Sequence record: PQ327946.1
DNA length: 64,000 nucleotides
Source: a phage
Strand: one strand, 5' to 3'
Below are positions 43,619 to 50,099 of the stretch, piece by piece. Numbering within the stretch: the stretch's first letter is position 1; each line of letters opens with the position of its first letter. A model generated the notes under the pieces. That model was given only the letters and a program-made list of their open reading frames with translations. It was not told the origin of the DNA and made no database searches. The position numbers and the translations under genes are program-made.

Positions 43619-43648
43619 ATTGTACCACAATCCTTGTGGCATGTAAAC
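43619..43648 (-). promoter_or_regulatory. early promoter for rnlA
   Basis: GTTTAC-N18-TACAAT; palindrome CCACAAGGATTGTGG in spacer. Confidence 0.45.
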
Positions 43649-44058
43649 TACTTTTTCTTATGTTGGATATTCCAAGGCGGGTTGAACTTTTTGATAAAAA
43701 GCGGTTCTTCAAGGTCCATTGTTGCGATGGTCATTGAACCAAGTTCGTTGGTGACTGAAAGGTCAAAACATTGGCGGGCCCAGAATTCAACCTTTTTGCC
43801 TTGCATTAAGGCATCCAAAATCATAAGTGATTTTCTTGAATCTGAAGTCTGGTCTTTTCGATTTATGGCTGTTCGATAATAGTTAATGCGTTTCTTTAAA
43901 TTCTTGGTTTTACCAATATACACAAGTTCGTCATCTATAGCAATAGCGTATATGACATTTTTCTTATTAGGGACATCAACTGTTTTAATTGTTGCATCTT
44001 CTAATAGCTCCAATTCTGTATATTTAATAAAGGAATATTCGGCGGCAATATCTTTCAT
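43648..44058 (-). CDS. denA: endonuclease II (DenA)
   Basis: 136 aa; closely matches T4 DenA as recalled (EYSFIKYTELEL..VIYAIAI.DELVYIGKTKNL.KRINYYRTAINRKD). Confidence 0.85.
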   Translation of the reverse strand: MKDIAAEYSFIKYTELELLEDATIKTVDVPNKKNVIYAIAIDDELVYIGKTKNLKKRINYYRTAINRKDQTSDSRKSLMILDALMQGKKVEFWARQCFDLSVTNELGSMTIATMDLEEPLFIKKFNPPWNIQHKKK

Positions 44059-44084: not shown

Positions 44085-45275
44085 TTAGAAATATTTTTTG
44101 TATGAATTGATTACATTTTGGTCTACATCATTATCAATTTGTGCGACAAGATAAGAACTGATTTCAACTTCTTGAGGAGCTGCTTGAACTAAATCAGAGT
44201 TCAGATATTCACGAATCCAAGGATACGGATGCTTGGTCGGAGCATCAGTGATTGGGCATGGCAAACCGCACTGTTTCATACGAGACACAGTCAAGTAATC
44301 AACAAAAGCACACATACTCTGCGTATTGATACCTGGACATGTACCATCTTTAAAGAGGTGTGCAGCCCATTCCTTCTCTTGACTATTTACTTCCATAAAG
44401 ATATCTACTGCTTCTTGCTCACACTCTTTAGCAATTTGAACCCATTCATCCCCATCAACGCCAAGTTGGAGCTGTCGAATAATGTACTGAGTGCCTTTAA
44501 GGTGGAGTTGTTCGTCACGAGCGATGAACTTCATAATCTTTGCATTACCTTCCATGATTTCCATGTTCTTATGGAAGTTGAAAGTACATGCAAAAGATAC
44601 ATAAAAACGAATAGCTTCTAAGGCGTTAATAACGTGTAAGCAGAGATAAAGAGACTTCATTAATGCACGTTTACATTCTTCCACATGCATAAGACTATTT
44701 GAATATGCATCCAAATCATATTCATTTTCGGAAAAACATTTAAAAATTTCTTTAGCATTTTCCCATTCACGTGTTTTAACTAGAATATCATCATAATATT
44801 TGCCGATTGATTCCGCACGTTTCATGATTGCTTCGTCTAATACAATTTCATCAAATACCTTAGATGGATCCGTATAAAGATTTCGCATAATATGAGTATA
44901 CGAACGAGAGTGAATAGTTTCACTGAATGTCCATGTTGCAACCCACGTATCTAATGAAGGGTCGGAAATCAGTGCCATAAGTACCGCAGATGGGGCCCTG
45001 CCTTGGATAGAATCTAATAATGATTGATACTTAAGATTGTTTGTAAAGATGTCCTGTTGGAACTGAGGAAGCTTATTGAACTGCGCAGAGTCCAACATCA
45101 AGTTTACCTCTTCTGGGCGCCAAAAAAACGAGAGCTGACGTTCAATAAGTTCTTCAAAAACTTTATGACGCTGAATATCATAACGTGCGAGACCAAGACC
45201 AGAACCAAAGAACATCGGCTCATTCAAAACATCGACTTGTTGTGTGTTAAAAACTGTACTCATTATATTTCTCAC
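44085..45275 (-). CDS. nrdB: ribonucleotide reductase small subunit NrdB, uninterrupted
   Basis: 396 aa continuous ORF; no intron-sized interruption. Confidence 0.9.
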   Translation of the reverse strand: MRNIMSTVFNTQQVDVLNEPMFFGSGLGLARYDIQRHKVFEELIERQLSFFWRPEEVNLMLDSAQFNKLPQFQQDIFTNNLKYQSLLDSIQGRAPSAVLMALISDPSLDTWVATWTFSETIHSRSYTHIMRNLYTDPSKVFDEIVLDEAIMKRAESIGKYYDDILVKTREWENAKEIFKCFSENEYDLDAYSNSLMHVEECKRALMKSLYLCLHVINALEAIRFYVSFACTFNFHKNMEIMEGNAKIMKFIARDEQLHLKGTQYIIRQLQLGVDGDEWVQIAKECEQEAVDIFMEVNSQEKEWAAHLFKDGTCPGINTQSMCAFVDYLTVSRMKQCGLPCPITDAPTKHPYPWIREYLNSDLVQAAPQEVEISSYLVAQIDNDVDQNVINSYKKYF

Positions 45276-45315
45276 TTAGTTTAACTCATCCATGAGTAAA
45301 TTATAATCAAAAGTC

Positions 45316-46305
45316 TTAAAGCTTACAAGCAGAACAATCTTCAGCTTTAGGTGTTTCTAATTCATAGTCATCTGTACCTGACCCATCACGAGTGTTATGA
45401 TAGTAGAGGTTTTTTCCGCCAAAGTACCAGAAGTAAAGCAGATCGTCAAGCATTACCGACATTGGCACTTTACCTTTCTCAAATACTGCAGGGTCATAGT
45501 AAGTATTAGCAGAAGCAGATTGGCATACCCATTTCAACATGATAGCAACTTGGGTCAAATAAGGTTTATTACCTTTCTTAGCAAGTTTCCACGCATAGTC
45601 GTAAAGACTCATGTTATGTTCGATATTAGGAACAACCTGTCGGAAGTTGCCTTCTTTAGATTCTTTAATACTTACTGGACCACGTGGGGGCTCAATCCCG
45701 TTTGTAGAGTTCGATACTTGACTGCTTGACTCACAAGGCATGAGTGCAGACAACGTTGAGTTACGAATTCCGTGTTCTTTGAGTTCAGCTCGAAGTTCTT
45801 CCCAGTCACAGACGTAGTTCGGGGCTGCGATTTGGTCAATTTTTTTATTGTACCAGTCGATAGGTAATTCGCCTCTAGACCATTTAGTGTCTGAATAATA
45901 CTCACAAGGTCCTTTTTCTTTGGCGAGTTTGATTGAAGCTCGGATAAGCCCATATTGTAATCTCTCAAACAGTTCATGAGTTAAATCGTTTGCGTCTTCA
46001 TAAGAAGCAAAGTTGCTTGCTAACCATGCAGCATAGTTCGTAACACCAACACCGAGGTTTCGACGCTTTTTAGCTTTTAAAGCTTCTGGAACCGGATAAT
46101 CTTGATAGTCTAACAGGTTATCAAGTGCACGTACTTGTACTTCAGCAAGTTCATTAATTTTATCTTGGTCTTGCCAATCAAATTTATCAAGAACAAAGGC
46201 AGAAAGAGTGCAGAGGCCCACTTCACCTTTGTTTTCAATAACTTGTATTGTTGTATACTCATCATCTTCGTAAAATTCATCTACAAATTCATAATCAATA
46301 TTCAT
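45316..46305 (-). CDS. nrdA: ribonucleotide reductase large subunit, C-terminal fragment (nrdA-b)
   Basis: 329 aa; covers the NrdA region from GLCTLSAF to the C-terminal CxxC tail (NSTLSALMPCESSSQ, CSACKL). Confidence 0.85.
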   Translation of the reverse strand: MNIDYEFVDEFYEDDEYTTIQVIENKGEVGLCTLSAFVLDKFDWQDQDKINELAEVQVRALDNLLDYQDYPVPEALKAKKRRNLGVGVTNYAAWLASNFASYEDANDLTHELFERLQYGLIRASIKLAKEKGPCEYYSDTKWSRGELPIDWYNKKIDQIAAPNYVCDWEELRAELKEHGIRNSTLSALMPCESSSQVSNSTNGIEPPRGPVSIKESKEGNFRQVVPNIEHNMSLYDYAWKLAKKGNKPYLTQVAIMLKWVCQSASANTYYDPAVFEKGKVPMSVMLDDLLYFWYFGGKNLYYHNTRDGSGTDDYELETPKAEDCSACKL

Positions 46306-47005
46306 TTAATTCTTCTACCTTTTTTCGAGATATTCCTAGAGCTTTAGATGCTCGATGTATTGATTGATATTCTATACCGTTTATTTTTACAGCAATTAAG
46401 TTATGGGGTTTTAATCCCTTTGGATGAGGTTTACTGACGTATTCTTGATTATCGTTTTCAGAGATATTATCAAGCTTTCGACACTTAAAGCCTTTATGTT
46501 GAGACCTTTTGCCTTTGCATACGGCCGACATTGCCGAAGCATTGAGTGAATGTAGTTCGCAAAATTCTCTTAGGCCTTTATGGATTTCTTCATGACCGTC
46601 TGGGAAAGTAAATACCCAAGTTGTTTGAAGTTTTTCTCTATGCTCGTCAGTTACCGGAATACCTTTGTTCCAAGCTGGTTTGCCTTTATTATTTTCAGAT
46701 ACAGAAATAGCCAATTTTCTTCTAAGCCACCCATGGCGTTTATTGGTGTTCTTTCGTTCAATATTATCTTCAGAATAAACACACATCATATTAGCGGCAA
46801 ATACCAATTTATAATTATCTGGATATATCTTTACTAATAATTGATGAGCTATGTAATGCTCTTCGGGTGTCAAATCTACCAGGTTTTCCTTTGTATCAGA
46901 ACCACCAATACACAGAGGTATAATATGGTGTGATTCGGTATAGCAATCTAATTTTCTGTTCTTAGCTTTAGAAATAAGGTTATTGTAAATTTTAGAATAA
47001 TCCAT
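46295..47005 (-). CDS. HNH homing endonuclease (MobE-like) inserted within nrdA
   Basis: 236 aa; HNH motif ESHHIIPLCIGGSDTKENLVDLTPEEHYIAHQLL; lies between the two nrdA fragments. Confidence 0.8.
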   Translation of the reverse strand: MDYSKIYNNLISKAKNRKLDCYTESHHIIPLCIGGSDTKENLVDLTPEEHYIAHQLLVKIYPDNYKLVFAANMMCVYSEDNIERKNTNKRHGWLRRKLAISVSENNKGKPAWNKGIPVTDEHREKLQTTWVFTFPDGHEEIHKGLREFCELHSLNASAMSAVCKGKRSQHKGFKCRKLDNISENDNQEYVSKPHPKGLKPHNLIAVKINGIEYQSIHRASKALGISRKKVEELNEY

Positions 47006-47050
47006 AACTTTTCCTCTTGTTATGGATTATTTATTAACGGTCTGTGTACT

Positions 47051-48475
47051 TTATTTGCTTTGAATTATACCGCCAGGATTAGCTTCATAAAACTTAGCTA
47101 CATCCGACTTCTTAATTTTGATTAAACGGGTTTGTTGGCTATTCACATCATTAGTTGGAATAGCGATTTCACAACATAAGTTACTCTGACGAATTGGAGC
47201 TTTTTCACGAATAAATGGAGTGTAGTTATTCGTGTTATCAACAAACTGTGGATAAATTCGAGCAGTACCAGAACGTTCAGTCATGAACAATTCAAAGAGT
47301 TCTAGTGCTTTGATTCTTTTCTTTCTGATTGTTGGGTCTTTTTCAGCTTTCTCATAAAGCTCACGGAATTTATCTTGGTCTTCAAAGAACGAGTAGTATA
47401 GTTCGCCTGACATTTCGTGAGGGCTAAATAAAGTAATATAATCATTTTTACCAAGGCGTTCCATCATAAGGTCATTAATCTGAATTCCGTAGTCCATATG
47501 ACGAATACGGTTTTCATCCACACCTTTGTTATTTTTCAGAACTAATAGGTTCTCTACTTCTAAGTGCCACATCGGATAATACGCTGTAGCAGCACCACCA
47601 CGAATACCACCTTGAGAACAAGATTTTACTGCAGTTTGGAAATGTTTCCAGAATGGAATAACACCTGTATGTCGAACTTCACCCATACCGATCTTAGAAC
47701 CTTCTGCACGAAGCATACCAACGTTGATACCGATACCAGCTCGTTTAGAAATATATTCAATAATTGATGCTGAAGTTTTGTTAATAGATTTTAACGAATC
47801 ACCTGCTTCAATAACTACACAACTAGAGAACTGGCGAGTCGGAGTACGAGCACCTGCCATAATTGGGGTAGGCAATGAAACTTGATGAGTAGAAACGGCA
47901 TCATAAAAACGAATAATATGTTTCAAACGGTCATGAGTTTCGTCTTGGTGTAAGGCCATACCAATAGCCATGATAGCAAACTGTGGAGTTTCATAAATCT
48001 TCCCAGTTGTTTTATCTTTAACTAGATATTTTTCTTTAAGCTGCATAGCACCAGCATAAGTCAGGTCAAAATCTCGTTCATGTTTAATCTGTGAATCGAG
48101 ATAAATGATTTCTTCTGCTGAATATTGAGACAACAGCTCAGGGTCGTATTTGCCTTCATTAACACAGTAAGAAATATGGTCGATAAAAGCAGGCGGTTCA
48201 AACTGTCCGTATACATCTTTACGAAGTGCAAACATTAGCCCTTTGGCTGCGACATACTGATAATCAGGTTCTTCGACAGAAATCGAGTTAGCTGCAACTT
48301 TAATACAAATCTTCTGAATATCTTTGGTGCTCATCCCGTCGACAAGATGGGTCTTAATTTCTTCGTACAATTCATATGGGTCAATTTGTGTTCCTTCACA
48401 TTGCCAAGTTAAGACTTGAATAATTTTCTGTGCATCAAAATTTTGGGATACCCCACTGCTCTTAGTTACTTGCAT
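47051..48475 (-). CDS. nrdA: ribonucleotide reductase large subunit, N-terminal fragment (nrdA-a)
   Basis: 474 aa; ATP-cone and catalytic region through active-site motif SNLCCEI, then a 29-aa non-homologous tail and stop. Confidence 0.85.
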   Translation of the reverse strand: MQVTKSSGVSQNFDAQKIIQVLTWQCEGTQIDPYELYEEIKTHLVDGMSTKDIQKICIKVAANSISVEEPDYQYVAAKGLMFALRKDVYGQFEPPAFIDHISYCVNEGKYDPELLSQYSAEEIIYLDSQIKHERDFDLTYAGAMQLKEKYLVKDKTTGKIYETPQFAIMAIGMALHQDETHDRLKHIIRFYDAVSTHQVSLPTPIMAGARTPTRQFSSCVVIEAGDSLKSINKTSASIIEYISKRAGIGINVGMLRAEGSKIGMGEVRHTGVIPFWKHFQTAVKSCSQGGIRGGAATAYYPMWHLEVENLLVLKNNKGVDENRIRHMDYGIQINDLMMERLGKNDYITLFSPHEMSGELYYSFFEDQDKFRELYEKAEKDPTIRKKRIKALELFELFMTERSGTARIYPQFVDNTNNYTPFIREKAPIRQSNLCCEIAIPTNDVNSQQTRLIKIKKSDVAKFYEANPGGIIQSK

Positions 48476-48771
48476 ATGTCCTCTATATTAAATTCATCTT
48501 TAAAAAGTTTATTAACCACTAGAGCTATTATATCACCATGACAGGCTTTTGGTTTACATGTGCATCCTAATCGCATCCCACGTAAAGGTTCAAGATGAGC
48601 TTTTGTGATTTCTCCACTTCTAATTCTTTTAATAAAATCCTTTTTGAAAAGCTCAATAGCTTCTTCTCGAGAAGAGGCATCCTTGCCTACATAATTTCCC
48701 CAGAATGTGCCACGATGAATATTAACATCAAAATCTGATTTGTATTTATTCACTACGCGGCATATTTTCAT
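48466..48771 (-). CDS. hypothetical cysteine-motif protein (101 aa)
   Basis: ORF with GCTCKPKACHGD motif (possible metal site). Confidence 0.4.
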   Translation of the reverse strand: MKICRVVNKYKSDFDVNIHRGTFWGNYVGKDASSREEAIELFKKDFIKRIRSGEITKAHLEPLRGMRLGCTCKPKACHGDIIALVVNKLFKDEFNIEDICK

Positions 48772-49238: not shown

Positions 49239-50099
49239 TTATACCGCCATTTTAGCTTTGATAGCTGGATGTGATTCGTAATTTTTAAGAATAAAGTCTT
49301 TAGGACGAAGTTTTAATACATATTCAATTTGTTCTTCGGTTGATAGATGTCTAAATTTGTATGGTAATCCGTTAATAACTAATTCACACAGTTCTTTAGG
49401 CTCACGACGTAAAACTTCTTTGCATTGCTCTACGTGGTTGCTGTAGATATGCGTATTGCCGCCTGAGAACACTAAATCACCTGGGATAAGGTTACACATC
49501 TTCGCTACAATATGTGTCAAGGCAGCGTACGAGGCAATGTTGAACGGCAAACCCAAGAAAACATCGACACTGCGTTGATACCATTGTAAATCAAGATGAC
49601 CATTACGCACATTGAACTGATAGAACATATGGCAAGGAGGAAGTGCCATTTGATTTATTTCAGCTGGATTCCAGGCAGAAACAATTTGACGACGATCAGT
49701 TGGTAATTTTTTAATACGGTCGATTGTTTCAACTAATTGGTCTACACCGCCGAAATCACGCCATTGTTTACCATATATAGGACCAAGTTCACCGCTATGG
49801 TACCCAAGGTCTTTTGCCTGATTTTCGTAATTATCGTCCCAAATAGTTTTACCTTCAATTAGACTACCATGGGTACGAAGACGTAATTCGTTAACATTAG
49901 TAGAACCGGACATGAACCACAGTAGTTCGGCAATACAAGCTTTCCATGCTAATTTCTTAGTTGTTACTGCAGGGAATCCTTTAGTCAGGTCCCAACGTAA
50001 TTTAGTTCCGAACAGGGCAATTGTTCCTGTGCCTGTACGGTCGTCTGTTTCATAGCCGTTTTCAAGGATATTTTTAATTAAATCTTGATATTGTTTCAT
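49239..50099 (-). CDS. td: thymidylate synthase, uninterrupted
   Basis: 286 aa continuous ORF with active-site region ALPPCHMFYQF. Confidence 0.9.
   Translation of the reverse strand: MKQYQDLIKNILENGYETDDRTGTGTIALFGTKLRWDLTKGFPAVTTKKLAWKACIAELLWFMSGSTNVNELRLRTHGSLIEGKTIWDDNYENQAKDLGYHSGELGPIYGKQWRDFGGVDQLVETIDRIKKLPTDRRQIVSAWNPAEINQMALPPCHMFYQFNVRNGHLDLQWYQRSVDVFLGLPFNIASYAALTHIVAKMCNLIPGDLVFSGGNTHIYSNHVEQCKEVLRREPKELCELVINGLPYKFRHLSTEEQIEYVLKLRPKDFILKNYESHPAIKAKMAV

Follow-up and report, generated by a model that had tools for sequence, protein, structure and literature searches.

What becomes of an enzyme whose gene is broken within its active site by a homing endonuclease gene? This question is raised by a 64,000-nucleotide (nt) stretch of phage DNA (sequence record PQ327946.1; hereafter the window), in which nrdA, which codes for the large class Ia ribonucleotide reductase (RNR) subunit, is distributed over two open reading frames (ORFs), nrdA-a plus nrdA-b, located on either side of an ORF for an HNH homing endonuclease. 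We consider it very likely that a self-contained mobE cassette has split nrdA into two separately translated genes, the products of which reassemble into an enzyme without splicing. The feature is an orthologue of the genes-in-pieces cassette known from Aeromonas phage Aeh1, and its kind is not new; the value added here is comparative, in that the short peptide extensions at the break (tails) emerge as part of the mobile unit, the family as widespread, and the cassette as currently mobile in coliphages.

According to this explanation, a mobE-type HNH cassette would have entered the loop between two active-site beta-strands of a class Ia nrdA. The cassette of about 916 nt would bring along 29 basic codons and a stop codon, a 45-nt spacer, a 236-codon endonuclease gene, and an overlapping start with 26 acidic codons, and its insertion would turn nrdA into two genes, with NrdA-a gaining a basic C-terminal tail (C-tail) and NrdA-b an acidic N-terminal tail (N-tail). 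The polycistronic nrd mRNA would be translated into two separate proteins that come together again by non-covalent contacts, with splicing at neither the RNA nor the protein level, and the oppositely charged tails would be needed for the active (NrdA-a/NrdA-b)2-NrdB2 enzyme, as was shown for the Aeh1 orthologue. A hairpin would hide the mobE start on read-through transcripts, while a late transcript from inside its 5' arm would free this start, and mobE expression would thereby be confined to late infection. MobE, in turn, would presumably nick or cut the uninterrupted nrdA of co-infecting phages, with repair copying the whole cassette including the tails; since the tails are copied along with the cassette, the invasion would be phenotypically near-neutral.

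Anatomy of the split gene

The coordinates of the three ORFs, the 45-nt spacer and the 11-nt overlap between the HNH ORF and nrdA-b (46295..46305), as given by the initial annotation, are exact in the ORF list (Table 1). Pfam assigns the ATP-cone, the RNR all-alpha domain and positions 1-221 of the 523-position barrel to nrdA-a, and barrel positions 219-523 to nrdA-b. Likewise, nrdA-a spans positions 5-452 of the 761 positions of the NCBIfam class Ia alpha family NF006578 (614 bits) and nrdA-b positions 451-760 (375 bits), with either score alone falling below the 813-bit cut-off. In the breakpoint alignment to E. coli NrdA structures, residues 3-447 of NrdA-a correspond to E. coli NrdA 7-455 and residues 23-323 of NrdA-b to 453-751. 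By both standards (E. coli NrdA and NF006578), the two halves are complementary within 1-3 residues and together neither lose nor duplicate NrdA residues, and the split point comes to lie at residues ~455-457 in E. coli numbering.

The motif SNLCCEI corresponds to E. coli residues 436-442, with C434 and E436 of NrdA-a being equivalent to C439 and E441. NrdA-a also holds C219 (C225 in E. coli) and N432, and NrdA-b holds C32 (C462 in E. coli) as well as the C-terminal pair C324/C327. From these alignment positions it follows that C219, C434 and E436 reside on one polypeptide, and C32 together with the C-terminal cysteine pair on the other. The ORF between the halves, described from the outset as an HNH gene, has an I-HmuI NUMOD-like domain in Pfam plus a weak HNH match, and its product matches the homing endonuclease family phrog_655 (4e-60); the protein is laid out with an N-terminal HNH nuclease domain and a C-terminal NUMOD-like/I-TevI-like DNA-binding region.

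Table 1. Features of the split nrdA locus, in positions of the window.
Feature	Coordinates	Strand	Description	Basis
nrdA-a	47051..48475	(-)	474 amino acids (aa), N-terminal class Ia RNR large-subunit fragment	ORF list, Pfam, E. coli alignment, NF006578
mobE-type HNH homing endonuclease gene	46295..47005	(-)	236 aa	ORF list, Pfam, phrog_655
nrdA-b	45316..46305	(-)	329 aa, C-terminal RNR large-subunit fragment	ORF list, Pfam, E. coli alignment
NrdA-a C-terminal tail	47054..47140	(-)	29 aa (codons 446-474), SQQTRLIKIKKSDVAKFYEANPGGIIQSK; isoelectric point (pI) 10.0, net charge +3.5	
NrdA-b N-terminal tail	46228..46305	(-)	26 aa, MNIDYEFVDEFYEDDEYTTIQVIENK; pI 4.1, net charge about -8.5	
Spacer, nrdA-a stop to mobE ATG	47006..47050	(-)	45 nt; holds GTACAC motif, late-promoter-like motif and hairpin 5' arm	
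RNA hairpin	46996..47031	(-)	13-bp stem, 10-nt loop (47009-47018); dG -13.8 kcal/mol, z -4.2, 0/200 shuffles	
Late-promoter-like box	47028..47035	(-)	AATAAATA, agrees at 7/8 positions with TATAAATA, the late-promoter box of T4; overlaps hairpin 5' arm	
Mobile unit by comparison	46204..47153	(-)	950-nt block, 2 mismatches to Tequatrovirus HY01	
Variable HNH segment	46425..46664	(-)	Residues ~114-193, DNA-binding part; separates two cassette alleles	
nrdB	44085..45275	(-)	396 aa, small-subunit partner, 40 nt downstream of nrdA-b	ORF list, annotation of relatives

Orthology with the Aeh1 element and a wider family

The HNH protein shares 48% identity over 229 aa with Aeh1 MobE (E 3e-61), and the two are mutual best full-length matches among 50,697 phage records, in which the next best matches lie near uvsW and reach ~31% identity. 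On these comparisons, the HNH element is an orthologue of the Aeh1 mobE insertion and not merely an analogue. Gene order agrees between the two loci, and the dimensions nearly do so: nrdA-a measures 474 aa here and 473 aa in Aeh1, the spacer 45 versus 46 nt, mobE 236 versus 237 aa, the overlap 11 versus 14 nt, and nrdA-b 329 versus 323 aa. Both elements also split the same nrdA loop, between the equivalents of E. coli C439/E441 and C462: the residues at the split are Cys431/Glu433 and Cys31 in Aeh1 (PMC3045599), and Cys434/Glu436 and Cys32 here, in agreement with the common split point that the initial annotation had claimed. Its description of the Aeh1 arrangement as "comparable" was borne out and exceeded, as the HNH protein and both tails are homologous, the latter with the same basic/acidic polarity.

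The Aeh1 split RNR is fully active and its tails are essential; NrdA-a and NrdA-b stay separate polypeptides in the active enzyme (PMC3045599), and the element shows no splicing (PMC3045599; PMC3653736). Differences concern the hosts and lineages (Aeromonas Cinqassovirus versus Escherichia Mosigvirus/Tequatrovirus), the distal halves of the tails, which cannot be aligned with those of the coliphages, and the kind of data, which are biochemical for the Aeh1 enzyme and genomic for the coliphage form. Moreover, coliphage genomes that are otherwise near-identical differ in whether they carry the cassette, and its sequence hardly changes from genus to genus; this shows ongoing mobility, which the single Aeh1 genome could not reveal. 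The mobE insertion in Aeh1 nrdA was reportedly also treated by Friedrich et al. (2007, PNAS) and by Gibb and Edgell (2007, 2009).

A search of the HNH protein against 5.8 billion proteins yielded graded full-length homologues with 67, 66, 64, 61, 57, 54, 54, 53, and 51% identity. All metagenomic homologues that were looked up (9/9) lie between nrdA-a-type and nrdA-b-type ORFs with the same nrdA site and layout, and upstream of nrdB wherever the contig extends that far, some loci being truncated by the contig. In the window, 8 cultured phages, Aeh1 and these 9 metagenomic loci (some of them contig-truncated), both fragments are full-length with all catalytic residues.

Some of these loci hold further mobile elements. 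In L018 (ENA ERZ14207129 NODE_16), the nrdA-a ORF (607-2451, 614 aa) contains an intein (PT-HINT/Intein_splicing) that ends with ...VHN/CLEIAIPT, just before the catalytic cysteine and ~15 codons upstream of the mobE split, so that two different mobile elements occupy one active-site loop region. In L012 (4169-4810) and L017 (2219-2995), a second ORF resembling a homing endonuclease gene (HEG) lies between nrdA-b and nrdB, i. e., at the position of T4 mobE; in L012 it encodes 213 aa with a faint NUMOD3 match. One nrd operon can thus hold both kinds of insertion.

The tails as conserved peptides

The non-homologous tails of 29 and ~26 aa that had been noted at the break do exist as such: uninterrupted NrdA, be it from T4 or from the closely related PHB12, has nothing that corresponds to either of them, and both belong to the inserted cassette rather than to nrdA. 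They are, by contrast, related to those of Aeh1: QQTRLIKIKKSDVAKF of the C-tail aligns with KEKMLFKVKKSEVDKF (equal score in 4/20000 shuffles) and IDYEFVDEFYEDDEYTTIQV of the N-tail with IEHERIYEVYEDEEYTTVEI (0/20000). When calculated in the same way, the pI values of C- and N-tail are 10.0/4.1 in the window and 9.9/4.1 in Aeh1, for which Crona et al. (2010) gave 10.4/3.8 (PMC3045599).

Across 12 family members, the C-tail keeps the motif TLIK(I/V)(K/R)KSDVxKF with a pI of 9.8-10.5, and the N-tail keeps EYE(F/I)VxEFYED(D/E)EYTT with a pI of 4.1. Summed over 55 pairs, the proportions of synonymous differences (pS) are 0.77 (C-tail) and 0.66 (N-tail) and those of nonsynonymous differences (pN) 0.31 and 0.27, which gives uncorrected pN/pS ratios of 0.40 and 0.41 with pS near saturation. 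Motif, charge and pN/pS conservation argue that the tails are maintained as peptides, and they appear to be under purifying selection. Such conservation is not required by homing alone, but is predicted by the biochemistry of Aeh1 with its essential tails (PMC3045599). In all family members, the nrdA-b ATG is furthermore preceded by a Shine-Dalgarno (SD)-like GAGG, AAGG or GGAG inside the end of mobE. Together with the selection on the tails and the biochemistry of Aeh1, this SD and ATG lead us to infer that the halves would be translated separately and form an active, tail-dependent RNR with NrdB. The alternating hydrophobic and charged pattern of the tails suggests that LIKIKK and EFYEDDEYTTIQV may form an intermolecular beta-zipper near the dimer interface.

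Boundaries and transfer of the cassette

The region matched 816 T4-like phage records, and the split arrangement is common to 33 of the 816 at a query coverage of at least 80%. Carriers include ZQ3 (98.6%), followed by AV111, F2, HY01, e11/2, fPS-2, and fPS-90. In the close Mosigvirus relatives PHB12, AV117, and mar005P1, the flanks are 97% identical, nrdA is uninterrupted and the cassette is absent. Compared to nrdA of PHB12, the net insert amounts to 904 nt, with about 916 nt standing in place of 12 nt that code for G-P-D-A; the upstream junction reads ...GATGTGAAT/AGCC (about 47141/47140) and the downstream junction ...AACAAAGG/TGAAGTG (about 46228/46226).

How far the mobile unit extends becomes apparent from the comparison with HY01, a Tequatrovirus, while the window is Mosigvirus-like. 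The nearly identical block takes in the cassette (C-tail, spacer, mobE and N-tail) and, at its two ends, flanking stretches of about 12 nt and 22 nt that appear to have been co-converted. Identity within it reaches 100% for the spacer and both tails and 99.7% for the HNH gene, whereas the nrdA cores on either side are 77-80% identical with a pS of about 0.7. A cassette with 99.7-100% identity in flanks of 77-80%, combined with its presence or absence among Mosigviruses that are otherwise 97% identical, indicates that the whole tail-mobE-tail unit has recently spread horizontally as one piece. Both polymorphism and a signature of transfer are thus found, as expected of a mobile element, and the cassette appears to be currently mobile in coliphages.

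The 40 nt downstream of the insert differ from PHB12 at densely spaced synonymous sites. More broadly, the codons for G-L-C-T-L-S-A-F-V-L-D 3' of the insertion (46150-46226) are heavily recoded by synonymous changes both relative to PHB12 and between carriers, as would be expected of co-conversion tracts, of selection for alleles immune to MobE, or of both. Within the cassette, about 70 mismatches in the 240 nt of the variable HNH segment distinguish the window from Eco15 and Eco05, the remaining cassette being nearly identical; this mosaic possibly arose by recombination with a different mob gene or reflects a change in target specificity. The alignments of the closest Mosigvirus relatives (ZQ3, AV111, and F2) end about 10 nt upstream of the nrdA-a start (48484-48600), which marks the nrdA.1 (DUF4326) region as a separate mosaic boundary.

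Splicing, inactivation, or a split enzyme

Two conceivable alternatives would restore a contiguous NrdA by splicing. In one of them, an intron (group I or otherwise self-splicing) makes up the insert (~913 nt) and contains the HNH ORF, the mRNA is spliced and the tails are mere intron read-through. Phage RNR genes are indeed classic intron targets, with T4 td and nrdB carrying ORF-containing group I introns, and the deletion of 913 nt (47140..46228) would bring the frames of nrdA-a and nrdA-b, which differ by +1, back into register (...DVN-GEVGLC). The initial annotation had dismissed an intron on the grounds that too little noncoding sequence is left for a group I core. That conclusion stands, though not the argument: ~215 nt lie outside the HNH ORF, near the ~280 nt outside I-TevI in the T4 td intron (from coordinates), and as length alone does not exclude an intron, the alternative was tested directly. 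Rfam, run over 45000-48600 with permissive filters, gave no intron at E<=10 and only two chance matches (a snoRNA and a lncRNA, E 1.1 and 3.9), whereas the same settings recovered the ORF-bearing T4 td and nrdB introns with E 9e-8 and 2e-6; on this negative scan with its working T4 control, both group I and group II introns were rejected. In addition, a 5'-exon U is left by just one of the junctions that restore the frame, and there the excised piece would close with A in place of the terminal G of group I introns, the supposed intron flanks evolve as codons (pS 0.66-0.77 versus pN 0.27-0.31), peptide motif, opposite charges, stop, and SD with ATG are kept in 12/12 members, and the orthologous Aeh1 element does not splice, all of which makes an intron highly improbable. 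Still less credible is the other alternative, namely that a split intein once flanked the homing endonuclease and survives in the tails ("fractured gene"). Metagenomes do contain nrdA genes interrupted by split inteins with an intervening HEG (PMC2677866), a degenerate intein was considered by Crona et al. as a source from which the tails may derive, in view of their electrostatic complementarity (PMC3045599), and the family member L018 has a true intein nearby. Neither fragment, however, has a Hint or intein match in Pfam, in which only RNR domains were found and the intein of L018 was readily detected; the tails total 55 aa, much less than an intein needs to function; the C-tail begins with S, D, K, T, R or Q across 12 members; and the N-tail is devoid of a terminal His-Asn and followed by E, D or Q at +1 instead of C, S or T. 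For want of a domain match and of splice-junction residues, an intein or split intein was rejected, and in Aeh1, moreover, NrdA-a and NrdA-b remain separate polypeptides. With the signatures of introns and inteins absent in silico, the genes-in-pieces arrangement originally proposed is supported.

Of the remaining rivals, the strongest holds that the two nrdA halves yield no working enzyme and that the phage tolerates this: the insertion would have inactivated the gene, the ORFs would be decaying fragments that host RNR makes dispensable, and the cassette would be kept by homing drive. It draws on several points that at the same time weigh against a working split enzyme. The T4 nrd genes are dispensable in the laboratory, where host RNR substitutes for them, so that the viability of carriers is no proof of a functional enzyme. 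Expression and activity in the coliphage carriers are argued by analogy to Aeh1. Given the near-identity of the cassette between genera (99.7-100%), each coliphage lineage may have acquired it recently, and intact flanking ORFs could be too young to have decayed. The strong purifying selection on the nrdA cores between carriers largely predates the split, and was set aside as proof of function after it because the cassette looks recent in each coliphage lineage; weight was therefore put on the tails and on the diverged metagenomic family instead, where the pN/pS of ~0.4 in turn comes from 17-20 codons, a small sample. As regards mobE itself, the late-promoter box in the window matches at 7/8 positions and not perfectly, and T4 MobE targets nrdB, not nrdA (PMC2988022, Table 1). 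Against inactivation, on the other hand, speak the full-length fragments with all catalytic residues in every carrier examined, down to 48% identity of the HNH protein, and the tails, which have no role in homing and are nonetheless kept as peptides with invariant charge polarity and the said pN/pS. nrdA-b also retains its own SD and ATG, and the Aeh1 orthologue is a fully active, tail-dependent enzyme (PMC3045599). Taken together, we regard inactivation as unlikely and favor the two separately translated genes, from which a split RNR would be assembled.

Predicted control of mobE expression

The hairpin at the start of mobE (Table 1) harbors the SD sequence AAGAGG in its loop, and the AUG with codons 2-4 in its 3' arm. 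Aeh1 has a hairpin at the corresponding place with the same z of -4.2, and all distinct family sequences that were folded (11/11) form a hairpin over the mobE initiation region. In the 7 members with the hairpin design of the window, the stem covaries: pairing is kept in 94.7% of cells, as compared to 28-40% when the arms are slid as a control, and 3 pairs have changed on both sides (6 cells; reached by 0/500 shuffles). The spacer is identical (100%) in 8/8 coliphage relatives examined, and in 3 metagenomic relatives, a perfect TATAAATA is present at the position of the late-promoter-like box.

In the documented cases of I-TevI, I-TevII, I-TevIII, segB, and Aeh1 mobE, read-through transcripts form a hairpin that inhibits translation, and a late promoter inside this hairpin provides the bypass (PMC2988022). 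By analogy, the hairpin is predicted to block mobE translation on read-through transcripts, and we infer that a late promoter would be used in this phage. As in the window, the Aeh1 hairpin lies over the site where mobE translation begins, and a late-promoter-like box is found in its 5' arm or beside it. Sequence and register of the two hairpins differ: the stem contains the AUG in the window and the SD in Aeh1, the SD of the window being placed in the loop. A scan that omits T4 middle and late promoters gave 9 sigma-70 promoter-like sites versus 12.9 expected and 1 terminator-like site versus 2.1, numbers that are uninformative, and a regular expression for the MotA box gave no full match.

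A further element of the spacer is the motif GT(A/G)CA(C/T), often GTGTACAT, which is found just after the nrdA-a stop in 9/11 family members (shuffle expectation 0.4). The copy in the window is GTACAC (47042-47047), and equivalents occur in the spacers of L012-L019; the motif has a TGTAC core in common with the Cys-Thr codons 3' of the insertion. That the spacer might serve as an operator resembling the intact nrdA target (cf. I-TevI) was tested and is not supported, as the best 15-mer matches at 11/15 positions, a value reached by 692/3000 shuffles.

Relation to other invaders and significance

Free-standing mobE between nrdA and nrdB in T4, as stated by the initial annotation, is correct according to the T4 genome coordinates. 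T4 MobE is likewise encoded in the nrd operon and resembles the protein described here in the N-terminal HNH nuclease domain only (46% identity over 127 aa, E 4e-32). It differs in having 141 aa, without the ~110-aa C-terminal DNA-binding region, and in being intergenic and without tails; in the window, the corresponding gap is free of genes. Closer in its consequences is T4 mobA with the split topoisomerase genes 60 and 39, where a Mob-family HNH cassette also splits an essential enzyme gene into two ORFs, and C- and N-terminal extensions have been proposed to restore assembly (PMC3045599; bioRxiv 10.1101/2022.08.31.505936). The mobA element differs in its target gene and in carrying a 50-nt translational bypass cassette, to which nothing in the window is comparable. 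The introns of T4 td (I-TevI) and nrdB (I-TevIII) as well as the inteins and split inteins of RNR genes similarly place a homing endonuclease gene in the conserved active-site region of a gene of nucleotide metabolism and come with built-in neutralisation of the damage, and the ORF-containing T4 introns further share the control of the endonuclease by hairpin and late promoter. In contrast to these, neutralisation in the window would be achieved via non-covalent assembly by cassette-encoded tails, with neither ribozyme core nor Hint domain.

We find it fairly likely that the tail-mobE-tail cassette represents a discrete class of self-neutralising invaders, parallel to HEG-bearing introns and inteins, whose tails arose once, travelled with the endonuclease and are still homing between coliphage genera. 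This is because the boundaries of the unit coincide with the tails, identity is 99.7-100% inside flanks of 77-80%, and tail homology extends down to 48% HNH identity. The class would then have reached T4-like phages with hosts in Aeromonas, Escherichia, Yersinia, Shigella, and Salmonella, together with many uncultured relatives. An element-encoded origin of the tails was proposed as a hypothesis by Crona et al. in 2010 (PMC3045599), of which this would be the first explicit comparative demonstration, and the class would gain a model that is tractable in E. coli.

A preprint from 2022 mentions "several others" and alludes to conserved extensions as unpublished (bioRxiv 10.1101/2022.08.31.505936). 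The GenBank annotation of phage e11/2 already names the three genes NrdA, MobE, and NrdA, PHROGs contains separate families for the two NrdA halves, and a search of the published literature found no paper on the split nrdA of coliphages, on the homology of the tails, or on the signature of transfer. To our knowledge, the Aeh1 split RNR has so far been seen as an isolated curiosity and is the only experimentally characterised enzyme whose active site is broken by a homing endonuclease and which is restored by the element's own peptides without splicing. With the present comparison, in which about 35 of the 816 matching phage records carry the cassette, this single case becomes a family that is divergent enough to define important tail residues, and the tails are seen to be part of the mobile unit and not the accident of one insertion. 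Natural pairs of carrier and non-carrier Mosigviruses are tractable for studies of tail-mediated assembly, MobE target specificity, and homing. For annotation, the paired "NrdA" coding sequences in such phages should not be called pseudogenes.

Neighbouring genes

The surroundings of the split gene are typical of the nrd/td region of T4-type phages, with rnlA, a denA-like GIY-YIG gene, nrdB, nrdA.1 (DUF4326), td, and frd. The gap between nrdA-b and nrdB (45276-45315) is devoid of a T4-type mobE or nrdB.1, and both nrdB and td (49239-50099) are intron-less here, whereas in T4 each of the two is interrupted by a group I intron. A GIY-YIG ORF of 136 aa (43648-44058, minus strand) separates nrdB from the RNA ligase gene and thus occupies the position of T4 denA (endonuclease II), which it probably represents, a homing endonuclease gene of the seg type being less likely.

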